64,000 nucleotides of DNA from Promethearchaeota archaeon Loki_b31 (GCA_005222975.1 NJBI01000006.1:1-64000); one strand, 5' to 3'; shown: positions 1-12,814, counted from the stretch's first letter. Notes: generated from the letters alone by a model not told the origin. Translations and numbers: made by a program.

Positions 1-1
1 A

Positions 2-616
2 GTACTTAATAAGATCGTAAAGTTACGCAAAGAACTACCAAGCTGGTTTAGGGAATGGAAAAGTGGTAAAGATGTTTTTATCGATTTAACCGGTTGCAAA
101 AGTGCCGTAAAAAAGCGACTGATCTTGCTCTTAATTTTTCAAATGATAAGCATCTTTACGCCAGAGCTCGATGAGCTCGATTTTAGCAAAAAAATTCTTG
201 GAAATTTGCAGTATGTAATAATGCTAGACGAAATTGGTGATTTTTTAGCAGAAGCAAGCAGTCCAATCTATTCAGATGACGAACATTTGGCAAAGTATTA
301 CGTAAATGAAAAGTGGGAAAATATTTTAGGAGTTTTTAGAAGTCGCGGTGTTTCTCTTCTATCTGCCGATAATAAACCTTCAAGATTATTTGAAAGCGTA
401 TATTCATTACCAAGCATACAAATCGTGTTCCGAACGGCTCATTCCTGTAACCATTTGTTTACGAAAATTATAGAAGAGCAAGAGTTTTTAAAAGGATTAG
501 AACATAGAAGAGCAATAATCATCGATGGTGTTAATGGATATAAATACGAAATTTTTACGCCCGATTTTTATTATCCTGATTTCAATACCAGTAGAGCAAA
601 ATATATAAATACGTGA
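2..616 (+). CDS. C-terminal part of a HerA/VirB4/FtsK-like P-loop ATPase (5' truncated by window edge)
   Basis: The frame of ORF 125..616 is open from position 2 (VLNKIVKLRKELPSWFREWKSGKDVFIDLTG...). It has a VFIDL strand, Walker B YVIMLDE, an arginine-finger-like FRSRGVSLL and a terminal RRAIIIDG, which fit the HerA/VirB4 C-terminal domain. Walker A lies outside the window. Confidence 0.6.
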   Translation, partial: VLNKIVKLRKELPSWFREWKSGKDVFIDLTGCKSAVKKRLILLLIFQMISIFTPELDELDFSKKILGNLQYVIMLDEIGDFLAEASSPIYSDDEHLAKYYVNEKWENILGVFRSRGVSLLSADNKPSRLFESVYSLPSIQIVFRTAHSCNHLFTKIIEEQEFLKGLEHRRAIIIDGVNGYKYEIFTPDFYYPDFNTSRAKYINT

Positions 617-784
617 ACTAAAAGTTTTCAATTTTCAAATTGGAGGAGAGGGTTCTTCAGCGAATACGGCGAGGGTAGTGGAAGAGGAAAAGAAAGCAAG
701 TCAGACACGGGTTCTGAGGGAGAGGCAGATAATAAGGATGATTCGTGTAGAGATACCGAGGAGGATGGCGAGGTTGATAAAGAG

Positions 785-943
785 TACGATTTCGATGGAT
801 CCTTAGATTTAAGCGAAGTAGATAAATACGATTTCGATGGGTCCCTGGATTTAAGCGAAGCAGATAAATACGATTTCGATGGGTCCCTAGATTTAAGCGA
901 AGTAGATAAATACGATTTCAATGGAGATCTTGATTTTAGCGAA
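785..943 (+). repeat. 42-bp tandem repeat, about 3.8 copies, in frame with the downstream giant ORF (encodes YDFDGSLDLSE(V/A)DK)
   Basis: Units start at 785, 827, 869 and 911 (tacgatttcgatggRtccYtRgatttaagcgaagYagataaa). Differences are mostly at third codon positions of frame +2. Confidence 0.9.
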
Positions 944-3900
944 ATGGAGAAAAATGATGAGGAAAATGAATTAGGGCCAACAGAAGAGTCTAATAATTCT
1001 CAAGAAACAGATGAAAGAGGTGATACGAATGATAATAGTGATTCGTCTTCAGATACTTCTGAGCAAGGAAACGAATCTTACGAAAATCTCAGTTCTGAAT
1101 CCTCAAGTACGGTCTTAACAAGCGAAAACAAGGAAGAGATGCAAGAATCCGATCAAGACGAATTAGAAAAAGAAATTGAAAAAGAACTCGAGGAAGGAGT
1201 AGAGGCTATAAACAAATATTTAGAGGAAGAGGCAGAATTTATTAACGCTTATCAGGAAATGGTGGGGAAAGCAAGGGAGTTTGACGAAGAACGAGAGAGC
1301 GAAGGCGAGGAACGTCAGAAGACCGATGAAGAATGGGAAAAAGAAGTCGAAACTGCTGCCTATACCGCTGAACAACTCTACGAGAGTATGGAAGAAATAG
1401 AAACTAACACCATTAATGAAGAAATTTCCGAAATTGAAGAAGAAAATGAAATTGAAAAAGAAGCAGAGCAGAGCGAGGAAATCTCAGAACCTCAGTTGAG
1501 TGATACAAAAGAAGAAAATTCTAAACTATATGAAGATTTAGACGAAGAAAGAGATGAGTTCGAACAACATCAAGTCGAATCCGCAATTCAAAAGGAGCTC
1601 GAGACCGAACCCGAATCTATAATTAACGAAAAAGAAATAGAACAACTTCAAGAGCTGGACGTTGAGGAACAGTTTGAAACCGTTCATTTTAACGAATACA
1701 TGGACGAGTTAGTAGAAAAGCAAGAAGAAGATAAGAATATTGAAAACGATAAAATCGAACAAGAAAAAGAAAATATCGAACAAACTCAAGAAGTAATACA
1801 TCAATCGACCTATTTCCAAGAAAAATTAGAAGAACAAGAGGAGGAATTAGAGTGGGATTATGAAGAAAAAGACGAAGTTGAACAACACCAAGTCGAAGCC
1901 GAGATCGAGGAAGAACTCAAAACAGAACCTAAACCTATTATCAACGAAGAAGAGTTGGAATACATCAAAGTTTTGGAACCTGAGAAACAACTCGAAGCCG
2001 AGCTTTTTTACGAATTCATAGAAGAACTAGCAAATAAGCAAAATGAAGAAAAAGAAGAACGCGAGGAGAATGAAGAACAAGAAGAAATCTCCACAGAACA
2101 GAAAGTAGCTCAAATCATGCGAGAACTCGACATACCCCAAGAAATAAACACTGGCGAGACCGAAATAGAAACCGATAGTCAAGAAGGAGGACTAGAGCAG
2201 GAACCTACTTTTCCTGGTGAGGAAGTGGTAGAGCAATTAGAAATAGAGGAAAACAAGGATCACCAACAAGAATTAGAAGAAATCCTCGAACAAGTAAGAA
2301 AAATCGAACAAGAAGCTCTCAACGAAATCGAACAGAAAGAAGAAGATTTGGATAAAACCATAGAAAAAAACTATGAGAGAGTTAAAAGGCTCTATAAACA
2401 ACAGACCGGGAAAAGACCAATTTATGCGAATAAGGAAACAAAAGGATTTAAACAGTGGTTAGAACAGAAAAAAAAATCGGAAGAAAAAGAGAAAACGAAA
2501 CAGAAGAAAGAACTAAAAGAAGAACAGAAAAAAGAAGAAGATTGGAAAACAACCTTTAAAGAATGGATAGAAGAAGCTTCTGAAGAAGAATGCAATGCTG
2601 AACTCAAATCTGAGTTAAAAAAGGCCCTTGAGAGTTATAACGAGTTCGAGGGTTTGACTCGAAAGTTTATGGAATTATATGAAAAGTCTCAAAACGAAAA
2701 ACTTTCTGAAAAAGAAAAGAATATATTAAAATCCTTAACAAAAAGGCTACAGGAACTAGATCCGATCCAACTCGAATTATTATTAAGTGTTTTTTTTATT
2801 AAAAACTATATCACCGAGCAATATTGGTACGATTTTTGGAATACACCTCTTGTTAATCGAGTGCTTAGCAAATTTTATAAGCACATCTCGCAAAAATATA
2901 AAAGCTTAAAGCAAGCTCAGAAAAAGAGAGAAAATTGCGAGGAGATACTTAAAAATTGGATAGAGCAAACATCCGAAGAGGAAATTAGCCTCGAACTTAA
3001 AGAGAAGTTAAAAGAAATTGTTGAAAACTATAACGAGCTAGAAAAATTGGCAATAAGGTTCATGGAATTATATAAAAAAGATCAACTCGGACAAATCTCT
3101 CAATCTGAAAAATCAGAATTAAAATCCTTAGTTAAAACGCTCGAGTCCCTGGATCCTGTTAAAATAGTACTATTGACAATTATACGAACCATTAAGCGTT
3201 ATTTGAATGATCAGAATTTTGACGATTTCTCGGACAAAAGGCATATCAATCGAATCCTTAACCGCTTTTTTACTCATATACTATTTAAATGTGAATCAAG
3301 TAAATCCGATACTTATAGTACTAAAGATTTAATTAAAGATTTAAGAAACGAAATACAAATACTTTCCGAAGAATTAGCTCAGATGTTTCCAAATAGATTA
3401 TTATCTAAAAGGGGTAATGCGTTTGGACATACCTTTCTTTCTCGATTTTGGGGTCATAATCAGGATTATGTCTCATTGTACTTGCTTAAGAAGGTTACAT
3501 TGGACTTAGATTATGTTATTAAAGAGAAAGCATTGCTGCAATTACAAGAGAAATTTGAAGAAAGATTGGGTGCAAAAGCGTTGGGATGTATTCGGATTCT
3601 TAAAAGGTATCGAGATCATGAAATAAACACACTCCAATTTATTGACTTATTAGAAAAAGAATTAGGAAGAGTTTCGGGTGAAATTAAAGTAAATAACGAA
3701 GAACTTGGTTTGATTCTTGCTGGTACACATGGGTTTATTAAAGATATTTTTGGTCGTATGAGACAACCCATCCATCAAAGATATAATCCCAATTACAAAT
3801 TTTCAACGGAGAGATTAAGCGAATTTAGAGATTTTCTTTTTGAAATATTTGGATACCGAGCCAAGAAATGTTTTGAAAATCTTAAAAGATATGAACTTCT

Positions 3901-4678
3901 AAACCCCGATTTAAAAGAATATTCAAAACAGATGCACACAATTGGAAACCCTCATTACTTCCAAAATATTGAAAAAAATTCAGAGGCATCCTATTGGTTT
4001 GGTTTCTTGCGCGCTGACGGCTCTCGAGCCGGAGATCCTTACAAAATATATTTTGAACTCTCAGTAAAAGATAAAGATCGCTTAGAAGAATTTGCTGATG
4101 CGGTTGGTTTTCCATCAGAACGAATAAAGTTTCGTACAAGATACAAATGGTATAAAGGGGTGTTAAAAGAATACAAATCTGCTCGTATTAAATTCCATTC
4201 TAAACTAATGGCGAAAGACATCGACGATTTAGGTTTTCAGAGCTCTAAAGCCGAACAAAAATTTGTACCAGATTACGTAATACAAGCTCTCAAGGAAGCA
4301 AAAAGGATATCAAAGCAAACAAACTTAGATTGGTGGCTAACCTTACCTGGACAAGTCGCTTTAGCGTTTCTACTTGGTTTTTACGACGGTGATGGATCTT
4401 ACGGTGGAGGTAGATCAGCAAGAATTTACGCGAGCAGTAAACAGTTTTTAACACATATTAAAGAATTATTTGAGATAAAGAACAAAATAATAACGGCGAT
4501 AGCTCCCGGAGAAGATGCTTGGGCTTTCGACCAAAGATATGTGTCTAAAGGTATGTATTCACTTGCTTTGGGCCCCAAATTGTTCGATATGATGATGAAT
4601 TCCTACGAACATAGTATGAAAAGGAAGCGTCTGCAAAATCTCGTAGAACCACTAAATTTCTTGGGTGATCAGACTTAA
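944..4678 (+). CDS. Giant acidic repeat protein with C-terminal double-motif LAGLIDADG endonuclease domain; true start probably upstream (frame open from 617)
   Basis: About 500 aa of E/D-rich low-complexity sequence, internal duplications, then NPHYFQNI...YWFGFLRADGS (about 3992-4024) and LAFLLGFYDGDGS (about 4361-4399). No Hint/intein termini. Confidence 0.8.
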   Translation: MEKNDEENELGPTEESNNSQETDERGDTNDNSDSSSDTSEQGNESYENLSSESSSTVLTSENKEEMQESDQDELEKEIEKELEEGVEAINKYLEEEAEFINAYQEMVGKAREFDEERESEGEERQKTDEEWEKEVETAAYTAEQLYESMEEIETNTINEEISEIEEENEIEKEAEQSEEISEPQLSDTKEENSKLYEDLDEERDEFEQHQVESAIQKELETEPESIINEKEIEQLQELDVEEQFETVHFNEYMDELVEKQEEDKNIENDKIEQEKENIEQTQEVIHQSTYFQEKLEEQEEELEWDYEEKDEVEQHQVEAEIEEELKTEPKPIINEEELEYIKVLEPEKQLEAELFYEFIEELANKQNEEKEEREENEEQEEISTEQKVAQIMRELDIPQEINTGETEIETDSQEGGLEQEPTFPGEEVVEQLEIEENKDHQQELEEILEQVRKIEQEALNEIEQKEEDLDKTIEKNYERVKRLYKQQTGKRPIYANKETKGFKQWLEQKKKSEEKEKTKQKKELKEEQKKEEDWKTTFKEWIEEASEEECNAELKSELKKALESYNEFEGLTRKFMELYEKSQNEKLSEKEKNILKSLTKRLQELDPIQLELLLSVFFIKNYITEQYWYDFWNTPLVNRVLSKFYKHISQKYKSLKQAQKKRENCEEILKNWIEQTSEEEISLELKEKLKEIVENYNELEKLAIRFMELYKKDQLGQISQSEKSELKSLVKTLESLDPVKIVLLTIIRTIKRYLNDQNFDDFSDKRHINRILNRFFTHILFKCESSKSDTYSTKDLIKDLRNEIQILSEELAQMFPNRLLSKRGNAFGHTFLSRFWGHNQDYVSLYLLKKVTLDLDYVIKEKALLQLQEKFEERLGAKALGCIRILKRYRDHEINTLQFIDLLEKELGRVSGEIKVNNEELGLILAGTHGFIKDIFGRMRQPIHQRYNPNYKFSTERLSEFRDFLFEIFGYRAKKCFENLKRYELLNPDLKEYSKQMHTIGNPHYFQNIEKNSEASYWFGFLRADGSRAGDPYKIYFELSVKDKDRLEEFADAVGFPSERIKFRTRYKWYKGVLKEYKSARIKFHSKLMAKDIDDLGFQSSKAEQKFVPDYVIQALKEAKRISKQTNLDWWLTLPGQVALAFLLGFYDGDGSYGGGRSARIYASSKQFLTHIKELFEIKNKIITAIAPGEDAWAFDQRYVSKGMYSLALGPKLFDMMMNSYEHSMKRKRLQNLVEPLNFLGDQT

Positions 4679-4822
4679 ATACGATTAGTTTTCTATTTAC
4701 ATTATTAAACTACTTTTTTTTAAAAAGTGGTCAATTCTTATTAAAGGTGGATAATAATAGCAACTGTAATTGTTAAAGAACATAGTTTTAAAGGCCATTT
4801 TTACAGCGCACGAGAGGTCAAA

Positions 4823-5488
4823 GTGGATCAGGGCAGAAGGTTGTTGGACTTGGGTGGCATCTGCCAAGGGGGCATTAAGTACGCCCAAGGGCTCGAAAAA
4901 TTTACCGATCTTCTTAGGTTAGGGCTCAACGGAAATAGCCTAACTAAGATCGAAGGGTTGGACACTCTTACGAGCTTGGAAGATTTGTTCTTCGATGGCA
5001 ACGATATCATCGAAATTGAAGGGCTCGACAAGCTCGGTAATTTGATACGACTAGATCTCGGCTCAAATAAAATTACGGAAATAAAAAACCTCGATAAGCT
5101 CGTTAAATTACGCGATTTGAGGTTGGCTGGCAATAAAATCACCGAGGTCAAAGGGCTCGGTAAGCTCGTTAGTTTAATTGATCTAGATCTTAGCAGAAAC
5201 GAGATCAGCATGATTAAAGGGCTCGAGGAGCTCGGCAATTTGAGTGTATTGAATCTTGGTCGTAATCAGATTTCTGATGTAAAACCCCTTGGTAAATTAA
5301 TGAGTCTGGAAACCATAAACCTTATTGGAAATCCAATAACCGATATTGAACCTCTTAAAAAATTACCCAATTTAAAAAAACTCTACGTTAATTATACAAG
5401 AATCCCACAACGCTCGCTTCGCGAGTTTGAGGAGTCCCGCAAACGAGCTTGGGAGCAAGGAAAAGGGCCATACTTTACTATTTTATAA
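4823..5488 (+). CDS. Leucine-rich repeat protein (SDS22/internalin-like 22-aa repeats); may start at ATA 4757
   Basis: Repeated LxxLxLxxNxIxxIxGL units. The frame is open upstream to 4745, with AGGTGG followed by ATA ATA ATA GCA. Confidence 0.9.
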   Translation: MDQGRRLLDLGGICQGGIKYAQGLEKFTDLLRLGLNGNSLTKIEGLDTLTSLEDLFFDGNDIIEIEGLDKLGNLIRLDLGSNKITEIKNLDKLVKLRDLRLAGNKITEVKGLGKLVSLIDLDLSRNEISMIKGLEELGNLSVLNLGRNQISDVKPLGKLMSLETINLIGNPITDIEPLKKLPNLKKLYVNYTRIPQRSLREFEESRKRAWEQGKGPYFTIL

Positions 5489-5749
5489 TCAGTCTTTTTC
5501 AGTCATTTGGGTACAGAAATGAAACTAATTTCTCTTAAAATCGCGAATATCTTCCATCGATAAACTGGTTCGATTGCGACCGTGCCGTATACTTTTGGGA
5601 ATATCTTTTTCTGCTTCGGATAAAATTTTTATTAATTTTAATTCCATGAAGCGAAATTTAAAATAACCTTTCATAATATGTGAATATTATTTTCATTTTT
5701 GAAGTATGATTTATCTTTTCTAATTATCATAAATCATGGTTAGAAAGGG

Positions 5750-6223
5750 TTGACAACTAAGCAAAAAATTTGCATTATTGGCGAGCAATCGGTCGGTAAA
5801 AGCAGTCTGCTATCCTTATTGCAGGGAAGGGAAGTCCAAGAGGAAAGAGTTCCTACGGTGGGATTAGAAGTAGAAGACTCCATTTTGAGCGGTAAAAAAT
5901 GCTCAATATGGGATTTAGGCGGGCAGAAAAGGTTTAAGTTCATGTGGCAGGATTTCTTGAAAGGTGCTGGTTTAGCAGTTATAGTATGCGATTCAACCGA
6001 GAAAAATGTAAAACAAACTAAGGAGATTTATAATAGGTTTGAACGTACTTTAGGGACCAAAATTATTGCCATCGCGAATAAACAAGACTTACCTGGTAGG
6101 TTAAGTGCTCAAGAAGTTCAGAAGAGGTTAGGAGGGCTAAAGACGTATGGAATGTCTGCTATTCGACCTGAATTGCGCGAAAGGATGAAAGAAATTTTAG
6201 AATACGAGATAGCTACTTATTAA
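5750..6223 (+). CDS. Small GTPase, Arf-like (Ras superfamily)
   Basis: G1 GEQSVGKS, G2 PTVG, G3 WDLGGQ, G4 NKQD, G5 MSA; TTG start. Confidence 0.9.
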   Translation: MTTKQKICIIGEQSVGKSSLLSLLQGREVQEERVPTVGLEVEDSILSGKKCSIWDLGGQKRFKFMWQDFLKGAGLAVIVCDSTEKNVKQTKEIYNRFERTLGTKIIAIANKQDLPGRLSAQEVQKRLGGLKTYGMSAIRPELRERMKEILEYEIATY

Positions 6224-6243
6224 AATATATTCTACAGAAAGCT

Positions 6244-6804
6244 TTATAAGGCATTTCCTATTATGTGGGCTAATCGAACTGGCTCAGGTATTTTTGAATC
6301 GACGCATATTTTTTTAAGCAAGGATTCTACCTCAGAAAATTGAATCCCTTTAGAATGAAAATAAATTTTGGAGATTCCACCTGCCGTTTCAACAAAAGTT
6401 TCAAATAAATTACCGGCATTAACTATGTTTTGAAGTTTTTCTTTATAGCGGATAGGAAAATTCTTAACAATTGCTTTTTTGACAGCCTTAAGATCGACTT
6501 TTTTTTCGGTTATAGCTACGATTGGTTTGTTTATTCGCCTGTAAATTTCCTCTAAATCAATAATGTTAAATCCGCCAAAAGTAATTGTGTCAGTTAAAAT
6601 GTATTGAATATGTTTTTCGTTTCGTTTAGCGAGTTCGATCAAAACTTCTGTAGCGTCGCTTCCATCAATTGTTATTTCTTTTTTAACCATTCTTACCATT
6701 CTAACACCTTGACAGACGATCCCTATTAAATCTGTAGTTTTAGAACGTGATTTGAGTTTAAATCTTGCATCGTCAAATCCAATTGTTATTGGAAAATCCT
6801 TCAT
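6244..6804 (-). CDS. DUF99/UPF0215 family endonuclease V-like protein
   Basis: IGFDD, ITIDGSDAT, ITFGGFNIID and PEPVRLAH motifs. Confidence 0.85.
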   Translation of the reverse strand: MKDFPITIGFDDARFKLKSRSKTTDLIGIVCQGVRMVRMVKKEITIDGSDATEVLIELAKRNEKHIQYILTDTITFGGFNIIDLEEIYRRINKPIVAITEKKVDLKAVKKAIVKNFPIRYKEKLQNIVNAGNLFETFVETAGGISKIYFHSKGIQFSEVESLLKKICVDSKIPEPVRLAHIIGNAL

Positions 6805-6806
6805 GC

Positions 6807-7259
6807 TTAATTCTCAGGTAAGAATTCTTTAATGTGATTTAAGAGCTTTGTGAACGCAATCTTGGCGCTTTCTATTTCGATATGCCTTATGTATAAATCT
6901 CCTGTAAGAGAATCTGCAAGGAAACTTATAATTTCCTTTATCGCCATTTTTTCACTAAACCAGATGTAAGCAATAATAGCTTCAACGGTGTCTGCGAGAT
7001 CGTGAGCGTTTGCTCTGTTTTTCGAATATTTTTTCATATTTGCGTTTTTTAAAGCTTCTGCCAATATTATTTTGCTTACCTTCTTACCCGTTCGAATAAT
7101 TTCATTATTTTTATTATTACGAGTTAAATACATAGATTTAGCAACCGAGTAAGTAAGATTAACAATACCATCTCCGATTTTAGCTAACCCTTTATCAGTT
7201 CCTATTGATTTTTGGGTTAGGTTAAGGTTTAAATCTTTTAATAAAAAATTATATGCCAT
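6807..7259 (-). CDS. Archaeal ribonuclease III-like protein
   Basis: DKGLAKIGDGIVNL and ADTVEAIIAY motifs; conserved neighbourhood with rpoL and DUF99. Confidence 0.75.
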   Translation of the reverse strand: MAYNFLLKDLNLNLTQKSIGTDKGLAKIGDGIVNLTYSVAKSMYLTRNNKNNEIIRTGKKVSKIILAEALKNANMKKYSKNRANAHDLADTVEAIIAYIWFSEKMAIKEIISFLADSLTGDLYIRHIEIESAKIAFTKLLNHIKEFLPEN

Positions 7260-7318
7260 TAAGAATAGATGATCAGTAATTTCTTATAAACTTTTCATAA
7301 AACTGAAAAAAAGATTCA

Positions 7319-7831
7319 CTACATAAGTTTTTTAAATACTTTCTGGGTTTCTGCAACTTCATTTCTCAAAGCATCTATTCCGTTGAGAAAGATTTTTTTT
7401 AATTTGTATCCGTCTTCGAGTCTAATAAAAATTTGAGGAGGGGATATGGCTATTTCCGTAATTTTATAAGCCGCAGCTATAACCCCTTCGATCGTTAACA
7501 AATGTTTTACAAGGATATTACAAAAACCATGCGATTGGCCTTCAAGGGTTAATGTATAATCGTTGTCACCTGGACCACTTATAAGATTTAATTTTAATAT
7601 TGTGTATTCTGGTAGTTCTGGAGCTTGTTCTACTTCTTCTGCCAATTCTTCTTCCGATTCGCCTTTTTCAGTCTGCTCAGGTGTTTCTGCAAGAGGTATC
7701 TCGTCCTTTTTCACAGATTCATCTGATACATCGGGATAATGGCTATCTATATCTTCCTTGTCAAATATATCTTCTTCAATGTCTTCAAGCTTGCTATCTT
7801 CTTCCTTTGGTCCAACTTTTTTTTTTGCCAA
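7319..7831 (-). CDS. rpoL: RNA polymerase subunit L (Rpo11) with acidic N-terminal extension
   Basis: C-terminal LEGQSHGFCNILVKHL...VIAAAYK...P resembles the RpoL/RPB11 signature; lies downstream of csl4. Confidence 0.8.
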   Translation of the reverse strand: MAKKKVGPKEEDSKLEDIEEDIFDKEDIDSHYPDVSDESVKKDEIPLAETPEQTEKGESEEELAEEVEQAPELPEYTILKLNLISGPGDNDYTLTLEGQSHGFCNILVKHLLTIEGVIAAAYKITEIAISPPQIFIRLEDGYKLKKIFLNGIDALRNEVAETQKVFKKLM

Positions 7832-7922
7832 TATATTCTACCAAAATCTGTGAATCTAATTTCTCTAATTTAGAATTAAATAAATGTTTTTTGGTTTTAA
7901 AACACTAATAAGATAAGAAATT

Positions 7923-8144
7923 TTATAAATATCGATTAGCTAACTCTTTTAATCTTTCAGTTGCTAAATATTGGAGATCTTTAGGGCCAAACAATGAGAT
8001 TTTTATTGAATTTCCTTCAACTGTACAGTTTAGGGTAAGATAGTTTATTTTTTTTTGAATTTCTTCAAGAAATTTAATAGTGTTATTTAACTCCCCATTT
8101 GAATTATAGAAGTGTATTACTTTTCTTCCACCGCGGCTACCCAA
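7923..8144 (-). CDS. Small conserved hypothetical protein (DUF2067-like position between csl4 and rpoL)
   Basis: 73-aa ORF with TTG start in the csl4-rpoL operon; family assignment by synteny only. Confidence 0.55.
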   Translation of the reverse strand: MGSRGGRKVIHFYNSNGELNNTIKFLEEIQKKINYLTLNCTVEGNSIKISLFGPKDLQYLATERLKELANRYL

Positions 8145-8173
8145 GAATAAAACCTTTAAAAATTAGTTCTTTT

Positions 8174-8770
8174 TTAATATCTTAAGTTTTCAGTTACATT
8201 TCCGTAATCGTCTGCTAATTTTCTGCTTTCAAGATTTCCACATCTGGGACATCTTAATCTATCTAACCCTATCTTCTTAAGAGTTGTTCCACATATTAAA
8301 CAATCAGCATGAATAACTCCAAAATTTCTTCCAGAGGTGCTTAATTTATATTCGTTATAATTCTGCTCAATTACTTTTGCTCGAATAATATCGGTAGTTT
8401 GAAAAGCATCTGAGATCCTCTCGATGTATTTTTTAGATATCTGGGAAACGTGAATATTTCCAAAATAAGAGCTATTAAAATGAATTTTTCCATTGATTGT
8501 ATGAAAATTAAGACCCACAGAATACTGTCTTAAAAACAGTGCCGTCCCGATTACCCGATCGCCAATCTTTACTGTTTTTCGCTTTTCTTCTTGATGATCC
8601 CTTACTTCTATTAATCTTTTGTTTGTATCAATATTGATTACTCCAGTTTTAGATGCAATAATTTGACCATCTTTTACATAAGTAGACTGTTTATCGGGTA
8701 GAAACTCTTCTACAACACCTAAATATTGACCCGTAAGAACAATTTCTTTATTTTTCGCTGATTCTTTCAT
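8174..8770 (-). CDS. csl4: Exosome complex RNA-binding protein Csl4
   Basis: GQYLGVVEEF N-terminus, S1 domain IHVSQIS...DIIRAKV, Zn ribbon CLICG...CPRCG..ESRKLA. Confidence 0.93.
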   Translation of the reverse strand: MKESAKNKEIVLTGQYLGVVEEFLPDKQSTYVKDGQIIASKTGVINIDTNKRLIEVRDHQEEKRKTVKIGDRVIGTALFLRQYSVGLNFHTINGKIHFNSSYFGNIHVSQISKKYIERISDAFQTTDIIRAKVIEQNYNEYKLSTSGRNFGVIHADCLICGTTLKKIGLDRLRCPRCGNLESRKLADDYGNVTENLRY

Positions 8771-8879
8771 AATTTTAACTAAAATCTTTTAATTTCCCTA
8801 TTAAATTATAATTAATTAAAACAATTAAGTTTTTTCATAAATTTTCATTAATAAAATTATAGCGTGGATTTTTTAGGCG

Positions 8880-9524
8880 ATTGAGATTAATAAAAAAGAT
8901 TTAATTTCGCTAGTTCAACAAACAAAAATATTTACTAGTCCCAAAATCGAGTTAGAGCAATATTGCACTGATGCGAATAGTGCGGTAGACATCATATATT
9001 TTGCGGGAGTTGAATTTAACGACATTAAAAACCGATTAATATTCGACCTTGGCGCAGGAACGGGCAGACTATCGATTTCTTGCGCGTACCTTCAAGCTAA
9101 GTATGTTTTAAGCATTGATATAGATTTTGACGCGATAAAGATATTAAAAGGAAATGTTAAAGATTTGGACCTTGAAGCTGTAATTTTACCCATTTGCGCT
9201 GACATTAATAGGTTTGAAATCTCAGCGCAATTATTTCCTAAAGAGTTAAATATCACGACAATTATGAACCCCCCTTTTGGAGTGCAAAAAAAAACCGCAG
9301 ATAGATTTTTTTTACAAAAAGCCTTTGCTTTCTCGGATGTAGTTTATTCGATTCATTTAGCTAATGAAAAAGTTCATAATTTTATATCTAAATTTGTAAG
9401 CTCAAAAAACTGGAGCATCAATTACGTGTTACCGTTTAATTTAGTTTTAGAAAGGTCTTTTCCGTTCCATACAAAAAAGACAAAAAAAGTTGCTGTAAAT
9501 GTTTATAGATTTATCAAAAATTAA
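8880..9524 (+). CDS. METTL5-family SAM-dependent (rRNA N6-adenine) methyltransferase; apparent ATT start (8880 or 8886)
   Basis: The frame of ORF 9165..9524 extends upstream through PKIELEQY and DLGAGTG to an in-frame TAG at 8874. NPPFG motif present. Confidence 0.88.
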   Translation: MEINKKDLISLVQQTKIFTSPKIELEQYCTDANSAVDIIYFAGVEFNDIKNRLIFDLGAGTGRLSISCAYLQAKYVLSIDIDFDAIKILKGNVKDLDLEAVILPICADINRFEISAQLFPKELNITTIMNPPFGVQKKTADRFFLQKAFAFSDVVYSIHLANEKVHNFISKFVSSKNWSINYVLPFNLVLERSFPFHTKKTKKVAVNVYRFIKN

Positions 9525-9550
9525 AAAAATAAATAAAAAAATAGACTTAA

Positions 9551-10855
9551 TTATTGAAATTTTTTCCAAGAATCTAAATGTTTAGGATAATTAGCATTGG
9601 CCCCTAAGAATTCCTCAATTCTTAACAACTGGTTATATTTACAATTTCGATCAGATCTTGCCGTTGCGCCCGTTTTTAATTGTCCGGTACAAAGTCCAAC
9701 TGCTAAATCTGCTATGAAGGGATCTTCAGTTTCGCCCGAACGATGGGATACCATGACATTAAATCCATTTTTGAAAGACATTTTTGCAGCATTTATTGCC
9801 TCAGTTAGCGAACCAATTTGATTTACTTTTAATAACAACGCATTTCCCGCTTTTTCTTTAATTGCCTTTTCAAGTATTTTTATATTTGTAACTGTAAGGT
9901 CATCATCTACAATTTGTATTGATTTATCGACTTTTGCAGTTAAATCGGCAAAACCACTAAACGCTTTTTCGTCAAATGGATCTTCTATTGACTTGAATGG
10001 ATAATCATTAATTAAGTCAAGATAATATTGTAATAGTTCCCCTTCAGTTAACTTCTTACCGTCAATATTGTATGTACCATCCTCAAAAAATTCACTTGCA
10101 GCTGCATCCATTCCTAGGAAAAAATCAGTTCCCATTGAAAAGCCCGCTTCCTCAATTGCTTCTATGATAACCTCCACGGCATCTTTAGTTAAGGATAAGT
10201 TAGGAGCGAAGCCACCCTCATCACCCACATTAGTTGCTGAAGGCCCATATTTTTTAGCTAATAACTTCTTTAATGTTTGATACACCTCTGAGACGTTTTG
10301 GATTGCTTGAGCGAAATTTGGTGCTCCTACGGGTAATATCATAAATTCTTGTATCGATAAATCGTTGCCCGCATGTTCCCCCCCATTTAGAATATTGCAG
10401 CATGGTAATGGTAATAAGAAATCTTTTCGAGTCTTATGATATGCTAATTCATGGAGATGAGCGAATAATGGTTTCTCAGATAGAAGCGCAGCTAACTTTG
10501 CAACAGCTAAAGACACTGAAAGTATTGCATTTGCACCTAAGTTGCTTTTGTTTTCCGTGCCATCAATTGCAATCATCTCCTCGTCGATGTTGGTTTGTTC
10601 TCGAACATCAAAACCTTGTAGTTTATTGTTTATAATAGTGTTTACATTTGATACTGCTTTAGTTACATGTTTACCCAAGAAAGCAGCGCCTCCATCTCTC
10701 AATTCAAGAGCCTCTAAAACGCCTGTTGACGCGCCTGAAGGAACAGCCGCTCTTCCATAAATCTTACCTACATAAACATCGGTTTCAACTGTTGGATTTC
10801 CACGCGAATCTAAAATCCATCGAGACCTAATTTTTGTAATTTTAAAGTCTATCAT
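9551..10855 (-). CDS. eno: Enolase
   Basis: DSRGNPTVE, VPSGASTG, GDEGGFAP, LLKVNQIG, SHRSGETED. Confidence 0.98.
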   Translation of the reverse strand: MIDFKITKIRSRWILDSRGNPTVETDVYVGKIYGRAAVPSGASTGVLEALELRDGGAAFLGKHVTKAVSNVNTIINNKLQGFDVREQTNIDEEMIAIDGTENKSNLGANAILSVSLAVAKLAALLSEKPLFAHLHELAYHKTRKDFLLPLPCCNILNGGEHAGNDLSIQEFMILPVGAPNFAQAIQNVSEVYQTLKKLLAKKYGPSATNVGDEGGFAPNLSLTKDAVEVIIEAIEEAGFSMGTDFFLGMDAAASEFFEDGTYNIDGKKLTEGELLQYYLDLINDYPFKSIEDPFDEKAFSGFADLTAKVDKSIQIVDDDLTVTNIKILEKAIKEKAGNALLLKVNQIGSLTEAINAAKMSFKNGFNVMVSHRSGETEDPFIADLAVGLCTGQLKTGATARSDRNCKYNQLLRIEEFLGANANYPKHLDSWKKFQ

Positions 10856-10969
10856 TTTAAAATTTCCTACTCTGTTTATTAAAGTTCTGAAATAAAATAA
10901 AGAAACTTTAATTCTTAATAATATTTTTTTATATATTATTATAAGCCTTTATTAGAATTTAGTGTTTGA

Positions 10970-11941
10970 ATGTCAACAGATAACAAACCTTGGGTAGAAA
11001 AGTATAGACCTCGCCTTTTAGGTGATGTCGTTAATCAAAAGGGGATTATAAAGCGTTTACAACAATTTATTAAGGATAAATCGATGCCCCACCTTATATT
11101 TGCTGGTCCAGCAGGTACTGGGAAAACAACTTCTGCTCTAGCAATGGTTAGGGGGCTGTATGGTAGAAAAATGGCGATTAATACTACTTATTTGGAATTA
11201 AATGCAAGTGATGCAAGAGGTATTAATGTTATTAGAACTTACATTAAGGATTTCGCAAAAGCAAAACCTCCGTCTGACATACCGTTCAAAATTTTAATTT
11301 TAGACGAGGCGGACAATATGACTGCGCCTGCTCAGCAAGCACTAAGGAGAACAATGGAAAAATACACTAAAAATTGTAGGATGGTTTTAATTTGTAACTA
11401 TTCTAATAAAATTATCCCCCCAATCCAATCTAGATGCGTTGTTTTTAGATTTTCCTCTTTGAATAAAGAGGACATTAAAGAGAGAGTAAAATTTATCGCC
11501 AATCAAGAACAAATAAGCCTAACCCCAAATGGGTTAATTGCTTTAGTAGATGTATCGAAGGGAGATTGTCGTAGAGCTATAAATTACTTGCAATCTTGTG
11601 GTACAATTTCAAAAAAAATCGATCAAGATATAGTTTTTCGTGTTGCTGGCGAAGTACCATCAGATAAAATAAGAGAAATTTTAAAAACTGCAATTGAAGG
11701 GCAATTACAATTTTCCTTGAAATTACTTAACGATATCATAAGAGAATACGGTTTGTCGGGTATTAATATTATTAAAAATATACATCGAGAGATTTATGAC
11801 TTACAAATTTCAGAAGACCTTAAAATTGAGCTTTCTAAACTCTTAGCTGAATCTGAATACCGATTAAGCCAAGGAGGTACGGAAGAGATTCAATTACAAG
11901 CGTTATTAGCCAATATTGTTATGTTGCATGAAATTAAATAA
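10970..11941 (+). CDS. rfcS: Replication factor C small subunit
   Basis: PWVEKYRP, GPAGTGKT, LELNASDARG, ILDEAD, SRC; no intein. Confidence 0.97.
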   Translation: MSTDNKPWVEKYRPRLLGDVVNQKGIIKRLQQFIKDKSMPHLIFAGPAGTGKTTSALAMVRGLYGRKMAINTTYLELNASDARGINVIRTYIKDFAKAKPPSDIPFKILILDEADNMTAPAQQALRRTMEKYTKNCRMVLICNYSNKIIPPIQSRCVVFRFSSLNKEDIKERVKFIANQEQISLTPNGLIALVDVSKGDCRRAINYLQSCGTISKKIDQDIVFRVAGEVPSDKIREILKTAIEGQLQFSLKLLNDIIREYGLSGINIIKNIHREIYDLQISEDLKIELSKLLAESEYRLSQGGTEEIQLQALLANIVMLHEIK

Positions 11942-12814
11942 TTTTTTTTTAAAAGCGAATTTTTGCTCTTGCTCTCTAAAATATTTATCCCTTCTCTCTT
12001 TTGATTTATTATCGATTACGAAACTTACATTATTACCATAGTTGATATCCCACAAGATCAATCCAAAAGGATCAGCAGGTTGATAAGAGATATCTTTGGA
12101 TGGGTCAAATAAATCTATAAATTCTTCATAGCTGATTTTACCAAAGCCTACCTCTAAAATCTTAGTTACCATTCGTCTTATTTGTTGTCTTAGAAAAGCT
12201 CTGCTTTTAAAATCGAATATAATAAAATTCCCTTCTATATTGATTGATGTTGTAATCATATCTCTAATGTTTTTTACTTTTTCTTTTCCTGGTTTAGAGA
12301 AATTTTTAAAGTTATGTCGTCCCTCTAGAGCCTTACATACCTTTTTCATCGCCTTAAAATTAACTGTGGAGTCGTCTTTAAGGATAGCATTCGGATATGG
12401 CATAATATATTTGTAATGCCTAAACTGTGCGTTATATCTTGATAAAAAGTCAGTTGGAACTTTTGAATAAGCCCAGACGCCAATATTTTTTGGTAAAGTA
12501 GAATTTATCTCCATCAATATGGGTATTTTTTCAGTAATAAAAGAAAATGTAGATCCTCGAGCCGAAACGAACTTATCGGTTCTACTTGCCACCTCGAAAC
12601 CCGATTTCTTAGCTTCATGTATATAATTCTTTTCTTGTAATGCTGTTAGTAAGCAGTCTTCAATGGTTAAATAATTGGGTTGTCGTTGAGAACCGAAATA
12701 TTCCTCCGCTCCTATGTAATAAAATTTAAAGAGATATCTTGTTTTTTCCATTCCTAATAATTTCATCTTTAAAATTATATTAATTTTTTGTATGAAATCA
12801 GAATTTTCGAACAA
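11906..12814 (-). CDS. truA: tRNA pseudouridine(38-40) synthase TruA (start may be about 12751-12766)
   Basis: GSQRQP, SRTD..VSA, GRHNFKNF, FLRQQIRRM. Convergent 36-bp overlap with rfcS. Confidence 0.9.
   Translation of the reverse strand: MFENSDFIQKINIILKMKLLGMEKTRYLFKFYYIGAEEYFGSQRQPNYLTIEDCLLTALQEKNYIHEAKKSGFEVASRTDKFVSARGSTFSFITEKIPILMEINSTLPKNIGVWAYSKVPTDFLSRYNAQFRHYKYIMPYPNAILKDDSTVNFKAMKKVCKALEGRHNFKNFSKPGKEKVKNIRDMITTSINIEGNFIIFDFKSRAFLRQQIRRMVTKILEVGFGKISYEEFIDLFDPSKDISYQPADPFGLILWDINYGNNVSFVIDNKSKERRDKYFREQEQKFAFKKKLFNFMQHNNIG

Follow-up and report, generated by a model that had tools for sequence, protein, structure and literature searches.

Positions 1-5657 of the stretch analysed here may well be the right-hand end of an accessory, integrase-free island of one Lokiarchaeia family, built around a motor-coupled homing nuclease with a swappable head, an interpretation to which we give a little less than even confidence. 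The stretch (hereafter the window) comprises 64,000 nucleotides, the first 64 kb of contig C96 (NJBI01000006.1:1-64000) in the metagenome-assembled genome (MAG) of Promethearchaeota archaeon Loki_b31 (GCA_005222975.1), which has 99 contigs and is 92% complete; the names attached to homologues place this genome in the Promethearchaeota/Lokiarchaeia. The core of the island would consist of two genes, encoding a soluble HerA/VirB4-class ATPase and a giant modular partner. In the partner, lineage-specific tandem acidic-aromatic motifs would be followed by a polyacidic spacer of ~470 amino acids (aa), a conserved basic TGKRPIY motif and helical repeats, with an exchangeable head for DNA recognition at the C-terminus. 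The head would bind and cut a specific chromosomal site. The break would be repaired by recombination with an island-bearing copy, and the island would spread in the manner of homing. As a DNA motor brought in by the motif array at the N-terminus of the partner, the ATPase would act either in break processing for long-tract copying or, together with a membrane protein here called X, in the movement of DNA between cells. Heads would be traded by recombination with free-standing nuclease or DNA-binding genes, so that the module is retargeted. Homing with the assistance of a motor is the mechanism that we favour, while doubting it slightly more than we trust it. The fuller proposal is possible but rather doubtful: a self-mobilising multigene homing island, with a nuclease tethered via an acidic adaptor to its own motor (and, for some copies, to an anchor in the membrane), retargeted by head swap and moving by long-tract copying or cell-to-cell delivery.

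Three open reading frames (ORFs) on the + strand, all in one frame, occupy the region at positions 2-616 (open at its 5′ end), 944-4678 and 4823-5488, in agreement with a preliminary description of this DNA that reported three co-oriented genes. The first encodes the C-terminal 204 aa (about residues 477-681) of the ATPase, carries the Walker B motif VIMLDEIGDF and is 94-97% identical in amino acids to the C-terminal ends of the copies on contigs C66 and C1. The gene is cut at position 2 because the assembly breaks at a repeat; the window copy starts at the contig end, inside the repeated module. The fragment itself has no Pfam match. The full-length ATPase of C66 has 681 aa, with Walker A GLTGAGKS and Walker B VIMLDEIGDF, and no transmembrane segment is predicted in the active ATPase. 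At C66:1860-1862 (locus L005) this otherwise intact gene is interrupted in frame by TAG, at a codon that reads TAC (Tyr) in the C1 copy; a recent nonsense mutation, an error in the consensus or, possibly, recoding could account for it.

A paralogue of the ATPase on contig C13 (653 aa, 27% identical) matches Pfam DUF87/HerA at 2.7e-9. Its AlphaFold model has a predicted local distance difference test (pLDDT) score of 87.5, and the N-terminal 300 aa, where HerA proper has a HAS barrel, fold as an unassigned mixed alpha/beta domain. In Foldseek the best match of this model is TrwK/VirB4 (1.7e-15), followed by Sulfolobus HerA (2.1e-15) and then by Sir2-HerA, DUF4297-HerA and DndH. The VirB4 C-terminal domain superposes on the model with a TM-score of 0.69, and similarity of the ATPase to PDB sequences in phmmer is marginal (E 0.065). 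Judged from its motifs and the paralogue model, the ATPase is assigned to the HerA/VirB4 clade of the FtsK-HerA superfamily; since HerA and VirB4 match equally well, the call stops at clade level and finer placement is impossible. The earlier reading of this gene as the end of a HerA/VirB4/FtsK-like ATPase is thus upheld at the level of that clade by the Walker B motif, the DUF87 match of the paralogue and the fold matches.

The second ORF, 944-4678 with its stop codon at 4676-4678, encodes the giant protein, 1244 aa when counted from the ATG at 944, in which aa 785-1244 are a separate unit. Residues 785-1004 (3296-3955) form the helical N-terminal domain of a nuclease cassette of ~445 aa, recognised through its free-standing homologues, and residues 1005-1229 (3956-4630) are predicted by Pfam, alignment and an AlphaFold model to form a single-chain double LAGLIDADG endonuclease fold. 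The two LAGLIDADG motifs are FLRADGS at 1021-1027 and FYDGDGS at 1146-1152, and the catalytic residues D1025 (4016-4018) and D1150 (4391-4393) are both invariant in an alignment of 34 homologues. The Pfam match is to LAGLIDADG_3, and the domain ends in a conserved SMKRKR tail. The model of the whole unit (pLDDT 90.3) shows the 220-aa helical domain followed by the double fold, with the pseudo-dimeric alpha-beta-beta-alpha-beta-beta-alpha arrangement and Foldseek probability 1.0 for the LAGLIDADG matches. VIA-align gives Z scores of 15.5 for PI-PfuI, 13.5 for I-Tsp061I, 12.3 for I-DmoI and 10.6 for WhiA. The 220-aa helical domain (aa 785-1004) has no clear structural match, and a sequence search of the unit against PDB returned nothing. 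Nuclease competence is predicted from the fold and from the retention of both catalytic Asp, which bears out the two-motif domain with both catalytic acids reported earlier. The nuclease domain is C-terminal and no Intein_splicing (Hint) match is found in the giant protein, therefore the nuclease unit is not an intein.

A HMMER search with aa 470-1244 retrieved 611 clusters, in which aa 785-1229 behave as one unit. This cassette of ~445 aa occurs as free-standing proteins of 440-470 aa in more than 100 clusters (at 50% identity), which are up to 70% identical to it, and it is also fused to varied, unrelated N-termini. Every source name given for its homologues is Lokiarchaeota/Promethearchaeota or marine sediment, and on these homologues we regard the unit as specific to Lokiarchaeia. 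Seven further copies with 25-33% identity are present in this genome, where the free-standing paralogues bear C-terminal tails resembling a helix-turn-helix (HTH). The fusion joint of the giant protein coincides with the N-terminus of the free-standing form. By alignment, the head is a complete homing endonuclease of free-standing type, fused in frame and intact-looking.

The exchange of heads is most evident among the copies in the genome itself. The copies on C96, C66 and C1 are 85-93% identical in nucleotide sequence from the ATPase to aa ~779 of the partner (window ~3272), and beyond this point their C-termini are unrelated; for each of these heads, paralogues exist at other places in the genome. 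Further giants, on C13, C35, C41, C5, C54 and C75, are paralogues that have the TGK motif and the helical repeats in common and carry as heads other LAGLIDADG_3 types, HTH arrays, DUF4379/CapR zinc ribbons or a weak HNH match. ATPase-partner linkage is seen at four loci of this genome. In other genomes, an acidic partner of 700-1670 aa follows the ATPase on the same strand in about 12 of 15 loci, and among the heads are LAGLIDADG_3, a TFIIB repeat combined with HTHs, and an intein. One clade lacks such a partner; an acidic protein whose gene precedes that of the ATPase stands in for it, and at locus L056 this protein carries a GIY-YIG domain. It had been proposed earlier that ATPase and giant form a conserved pair, and that C-termini might swap while the ATPase neighbour stays; both are seen here, the first in the loci of other genomes and the second in the three near-identical copies with unrelated ends and in the varied heads elsewhere.

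Every partner begins with three to six tandem short acidic-aromatic motifs, and the motif differs according to the ATPase lineage (WDDIDWSED, DEFDDLIPEVFSE, DYDPFSL, EYNPFECPDY or PQTFDEVEKA). This correspondence suggests that the N-terminal array is a docking array matched to the cognate ATPase. Co-folding of the C13 ATPase with the motif array of its partner (aa 55-135) scored 0.00, which gives no verdict either way.

Some variants of the module deserve description. In genus g2, the ATPase partners at L057:6017-8143 and L064:6632-9298 hold a true intein (Intein_splicing plus LAGLIDADG_3). At L063:3939-8957 the partner has 1673 aa, with a TFIIB cyclin repeat (E 2e-19) and HTH modules in the C-terminal part. 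In two genomes (L054:4183-4941 and L058:11337-12029), a protein of 230-250 aa with several transmembrane segments and a HExxH motif (IIHELSHAL) is encoded directly upstream of the ATPase; it could be a membrane metalloprotease that belongs to certain variants of the module. At L067:7271-9463, a 907-aa member of the ATPase family is followed, two genes further on, by a secretion ATPase of T2SSE/VirB11 type.

The comparison with related genomes indicates where the island is placed. An Arf/Roc-type small GTPase gene (5750-6223, + strand, identified by Pfam) lies to the right of the module, outside it, and belongs to the chromosomal backbone; its orthologues, 80-94% identical and beside an Endo_dU gene, are found in ten of ten genomes of the same genus. 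The Roc, Endo_dU and RNase III-like genes (window 5750-7259) are 58-94% identical in these ten genomes and are followed by an RNA polymerase-subunit homologue (48-86%). In all ten, EF-1alpha is located just upstream of Roc, directly in seven and with 1-3.7 kb of unrelated genes between them in three, and none has the ATPase, the giant or the third gene of the window at this site. Across the family, 20 of 30 loci have Roc no more than 1.5 kb downstream of EF-1alpha. Backbone homology resumes at window 5658. The interval 5483-5657, which separates the resumed EF-1alpha/Roc backbone from the shared unit, is a junction spacer unique to this genome. EF-1alpha and the seven genes upstream of it, about 8 kb of genes conserved in relatives, are missing from this MAG. 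Probably the left flank of the window copy was not binned, the repeated module having broken the assembly. We infer the insertion between EF-1alpha and Roc solely from the relatives, because the left end of the island and EF-1alpha are missing from the assembly.

In another genus, a module of a different lineage (ATPase 33% identical) is found right after EF-1alpha. As the EF-1alpha/Roc spacer has also received unrelated insertions in other genomes, a preference of the module for this site is no more than suggestive. Directly upstream of EF-1alpha in one genome of the same genus (G121, L140:11152-11862), there is a truncated member of the 445-aa LAGLIDADG family, consisting of the second half and the HTH tail; the EF-1alpha gene match at this locus is flagged with two stop codons, one TAG and one TAA. 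A remnant or recoding of the 3′ end of EF-1alpha was looked for at the junction in the window and none was found. For a second copy of the module, the left junction was located at C97:25322, and a conserved gene starts 18 nt away from it. Contig C97 was considered as the left half of the window copy and rejected, as the gene flanking its junction lies on a different contig from EF-1alpha/Roc in relatives; the neighbour of this flanking gene in relatives has no orthologue in the present assembly.

The distribution of the module is patchy and multi-copy, with decay. With the C13 ATPase as query, matches came from 16 of the 40 genomes in the family, from 4 of the 16 in the genus and from 1 of 160 elsewhere in the phylum. 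There are one to seven matches per genome, several of them at contig ends and some with stop codons. By these comparisons the module is evidently accessory and mobile. The visible genes include no integrase, transposase or phage family, no tRNA is found in window 1-12000, and no attachment (att) site occurs in the visible part. Of the earlier suggestion that the region is the end of an integrative/conjugative element, the mobile accessory character stands, while integrase, att site and tRNA are wanting in the visible part.

The same features bear on a different explanation, a defence or conflict system of the HerA-plus-effector type, in which a ring of the ATPase would serve as scaffold and activator for a nuclease partner directed at invading DNA, with the variety of heads as the outcome of an arms race. 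The best fold matches of the ATPase include Sir2/HerA, DUF4297-HerA and DndH, weak PADLOC matches to mad8 and HerA are present, one ATPase locus adjoins Cas6, and both the patchy multi-copy distribution and the rapid turnover of heads count in its favour. However, the known HerA effectors Sir2, DUF4297 and NurA are all absent: Pfam and PADLOC scans of the partners found no Sir2 or DUF4297 domain, and no NurA-like gene is adjacent to the ATPase in any locus surveyed, although NurA was not searched genome-wide. Moreover, the heads are sequence-specific nucleases of homing type or plain DNA binders, not indiscriminate effectors; the PADLOC matches span only the generic P-loop core; and the module itself is inserted at variable sites. 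We consider a defence role unlikely.

The N-terminal part of the giant protein is the portion that would connect motor and head. Residues 1-470 (944-2353) are a polyacidic low-complexity region with internal duplications, with 38% D+E and a net charge of -140. Next, at aa 471-540, comes a basic stretch with the conserved TGKRPIY motif (LYKQQTGKRPIYANKETKGFKQWLE, aa 484-508, positions 2393-2467), a signature of the partner family that is found in nine paralogues of this genome and in partners from four other genomes. Two helical repeats of about 125 aa follow at aa 532-656 and 663-787 (2537-3304) and share 56 of 125 residues (45% identity). The preliminary description had divided the protein into ~1000 acidic or repetitive residues and a nuclease of ~250 aa; the acidity is confirmed for aa 1-470 only, and the rest of the part before the nuclease fold is basic or helical. 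Searches of the giant against NCBIfam, PADLOC and PHROGs gave no match, and a look-alike search of aa 470-1004 in a protein atlas found nothing.

The giant protein very probably starts upstream of the ATG at 944, at a non-standard start. Its frame is open from 617, just after the stop codon of the ATPase (TGA 614-616), which adds 109 codons, and no ATG, GTG or TTG start is found in this frame between 617 and 943. In the probable N-terminal extension (617-943), positions 785-943 encode four tandem acidic-aromatic units of 14 aa, KYDFDGSLDLSE (TRF: period 42, 3.8 copies). The KYDFDGSLDLSE peptide is conserved in the C66 and C1 copies, where it lies in a different frame relative to the ATPase, and the arrays of these two copies differ by exactly one in-frame unit of 42 nt; it is thus conserved as protein, which argues for the upstream start. 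A GGAGG sequence occurs at 642-646, within the open extension. The region points to non-canonical initiation or to re-initiation after the ATPase stop codon. Read-through of the TGA at 614-616, joining the ATPase to the giant, was rejected, because in C66 and C1 the giant is not in the frame of the ATPase.

The third ORF (4823-5488) encodes a protein of 221 aa with about seven leucine-rich repeat (LRR) units of the LRR_4 type (Pfam, 6.9e-40), as already described, and with no predicted signal peptide or transmembrane segment. At loci L022 and L112, an orthologue of the giant (68-72% identical) has an LRR orthologue directly after it (75% and 73% identical). The three copies cease to be homologous in nucleotide sequence at window 5481-5482, at the stop codon of the LRR gene, and the sequence downstream differs in all three. 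Since the LRR gene ends the shared unit and stays with the giant in three genomic contexts, it is not a random neighbour, a possibility raised earlier, and by this comparison it is taken as the terminal gene of this island lineage. A partnership of the LRR protein with the downstream Roc GTPase was rejected, as Roc occurs without LRR in ten of ten relatives; the GTPase after the L022 LRR is 27% identical to Roc, L112 has none, and a Roc gene lies within 2.5 kb at only 2 of the 11 LRR loci of this genome. The LRR protein may be cargo or a regulator of the nuclease.

It had also been proposed that the three genes form a system similar to polymorphic toxins, in which the ATPase exports the giant with its nuclease as toxin and the LRR protein serves as immunity protein or inhibitor. 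In polymorphic toxin systems, a constant N-terminal part is combined with C-terminal domains that are exchanged with stand-alone cassettes (Zhang et al. 2012, PMC3482391), and the present module is alike in its constant N-terminal region and exchangeable C-terminal domains. The maintenance of the LRR gene directly after the giant in three contexts, at the end of the shared unit, fits this proposal as well. On the other hand, the giant protein has no signal peptide, transmembrane segment or hydrophobic leader, its N-terminus being acidic, and Pfam finds no trafficking domain in it, so that secretion as a polymorphic toxin is not supported. There is no LRR neighbour beside the 70%-identical free-standing nuclease, beside the 59%-identical fusions (L113 and L023) or beside the paralogous giants, and no conserved small gene lies downstream of the latter, which speaks against an immunity function. 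In addition, LAGLIDADG enzymes are rare-cutting and would be poor toxins. The module thus differs from polymorphic toxin systems in the lack of a trafficking domain, signal or cassette-linked immunity gene, in its rare-cutting or DNA-recognition heads and in the mobility of the locus itself, and a toxin system is very improbable.

A membrane gene upstream of the ATPase, whose presence had been suggested earlier, is found in other copies of the module. Contig C97 ends with the gene for protein X (1291 aa) followed by the first 131 aa of the ATPase, in a stretch that is 93% identical in nucleotides to the start of C66; the end of X is seen upstream of the ATPase on C66 and C97 only. About four transmembrane segments are predicted in X. 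One domain of X keeps HerA/VirB4-like blocks and is devoid of the Gly-Lys-Ser/Thr of Walker A. Its language-model look-alikes are DUF87/TrwB families (0.89-0.91), hhalign gives a probability of 31% between the profiles of X and the ATPase, and X has no match in PHROGs. These data offer modest support for a degenerate, motor-dead HerA/VirB4-like domain. Of 61 genomes of the family, 43 encode X, yet among the 30 X loci sampled there are only 2 in which the ATPase comes next. X as an obligatory third component was therefore rejected, and it is an occasional, not a defining, component. A second paralogue of X (1257 aa, L070, C16:7759-16053) has no linkage to the ATPase and is co-directional with a 623-aa helix-hairpin-helix protein and three proteins without Pfam match, a cluster that may represent the ancestral context of X.

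Protein X brings into consideration a DNA transfer system similar to conjugation or Ced, in which X and the VirB4-like ATPase would pump DNA and the giant would substitute for a relaxase at the transfer origin, an explanation that overlaps with the one we favour. The top Foldseek match to TrwK/VirB4, the TM-score with the VirB4 C-terminal domain, the transmembrane segments and degenerate HerA/VirB4/TrwB-like domain of X, and the T2SSE/VirB11-type ATPase neighbouring one ATPase locus are all compatible with it. Nevertheless, no pilin, VirB6/B8-like, VirD4 or relaxase gene is seen in the visible flanks and surveyed loci, X is usually unlinked to the ATPase and its similarity to it is weak, and most ATPase-partner loci have no membrane gene at all. 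DNA transfer of this type appears quite unlikely.

Several observations count against the favoured explanation, a motor-assisted homing island. Some heads (HTH arrays, the TFIIB repeat) have no recognisable nuclease, therefore cutting is not the universal activity. No cleavage site, target duplication or recoded end of a host gene is found at the visible junction. The EF-1alpha/Roc spacer holds unrelated insertions in other genomes and may be just a permissive spot. The left end of the island is missing from the assembly, so that an integrase could lie farther to the left. The ATPase core matches HerA and VirB4 to the same degree, its fold being silent on what the motor moves, and the ATPase comes after X at just 2 of the 30 X loci sampled.

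In addition, other Lokiarchaeia keep the ATPase-partner pair beside a GH57 gene, in a context that looks chromosomal and not mobile. Such conserved pairs agree with an alternative in which ATPase and partner are a housekeeping machine for chromatin, segregation or repair, and a selfish homing-endonuclease gene has hitch-hiked by fusion at the 3′ end. The fusion of the same nuclease unit to unrelated N-termini elsewhere and the true intein carried by one partner also agree with it. However, nearly all partners examined end in a DNA-recognition or nuclease module, so that the head position looks designed and not accidental; the whole pair, not the head alone, is absent from the site in ten of ten related genomes; and, within the genus, the pair has a patchy occurrence. 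A housekeeping pair with a hitch-hiking nuclease is thus improbable.

The homing island can also be compared with known systems. The head shares with LAGLIDADG enzymes (free-standing I-DmoI, I-SceI and I-Tsp061I, and the domains of PI-PfuI and PI-SceI) the single-chain double fold and both catalytic Asp, and differs from them in the preceding family-specific helical domain of 220 aa, in the fusion to about 890 more residues (counted from 617), about 580 of them acidic, and in the operon linkage to a P-loop motor. The intronless homing of free-standing endonuclease genes is similar in that a multi-copy free-standing family exists and the element lies at a site that is empty in relatives, with no visible integrase. 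On the other hand, the unit that apparently moves here comprises at least 5.6 kb and several genes, not a single ORF, intron or intein. WhiA, a LAGLIDADG-derived transcription factor with a C-terminal HTH, resembles the nuclease in fold (Z 10.6) and in the HTH-like tails of the free-standing paralogues. The catalytic acids are lost in WhiA, whereas both are kept in 34 of 34 aligned members of the present family.

The pairs HerA-NurA, Sir2-HerA (Nezha) and DUF4297-HerA and the DndFGH system also place a motor beside a varying DNA-acting partner, and their core fold matches at E 1e-12 to 1e-15. The partner described here is unrelated to NurA, Sir2 and DUF4297, and has instead heads of homing type, a polyacidic spacer and N-terminal motifs. 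VirB4/TrwK of type IV secretion and archaeal CedB are similar in fold (TrwK/VirB4, 1.7e-15) and in the membrane-anchored degenerate paralogue X of some copies; unlike them, the present ATPase has no transmembrane segment, no other component of type IV secretion or Ced is seen, and linkage to X is exceptional.

A full-text literature search found no published description of the ATPase-giant module, which is apparently undescribed. It unites a HerA/VirB4 motor with homing endonucleases, both of them well studied, in a combination that was not found in the literature searched. The Asgard archaea are the closest known prokaryotic relatives of eukaryotes, and their mobile elements and conflict systems are poorly known. 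The module is abundant, with more than 100 protein clusters of the nuclease unit and up to seven ATPase matches per genome, and it breaks assemblies and reshapes the surroundings of core genes such as EF-1alpha. Should the module serve in defence, the HerA-effector theme would reach archaea as well, there with sequence-specific heads. If a motor does assist the homing nuclease, the module would represent a new way for large integrase-free islands to move, and would be a natural source of modular, retargetable rare-cutting nucleases.

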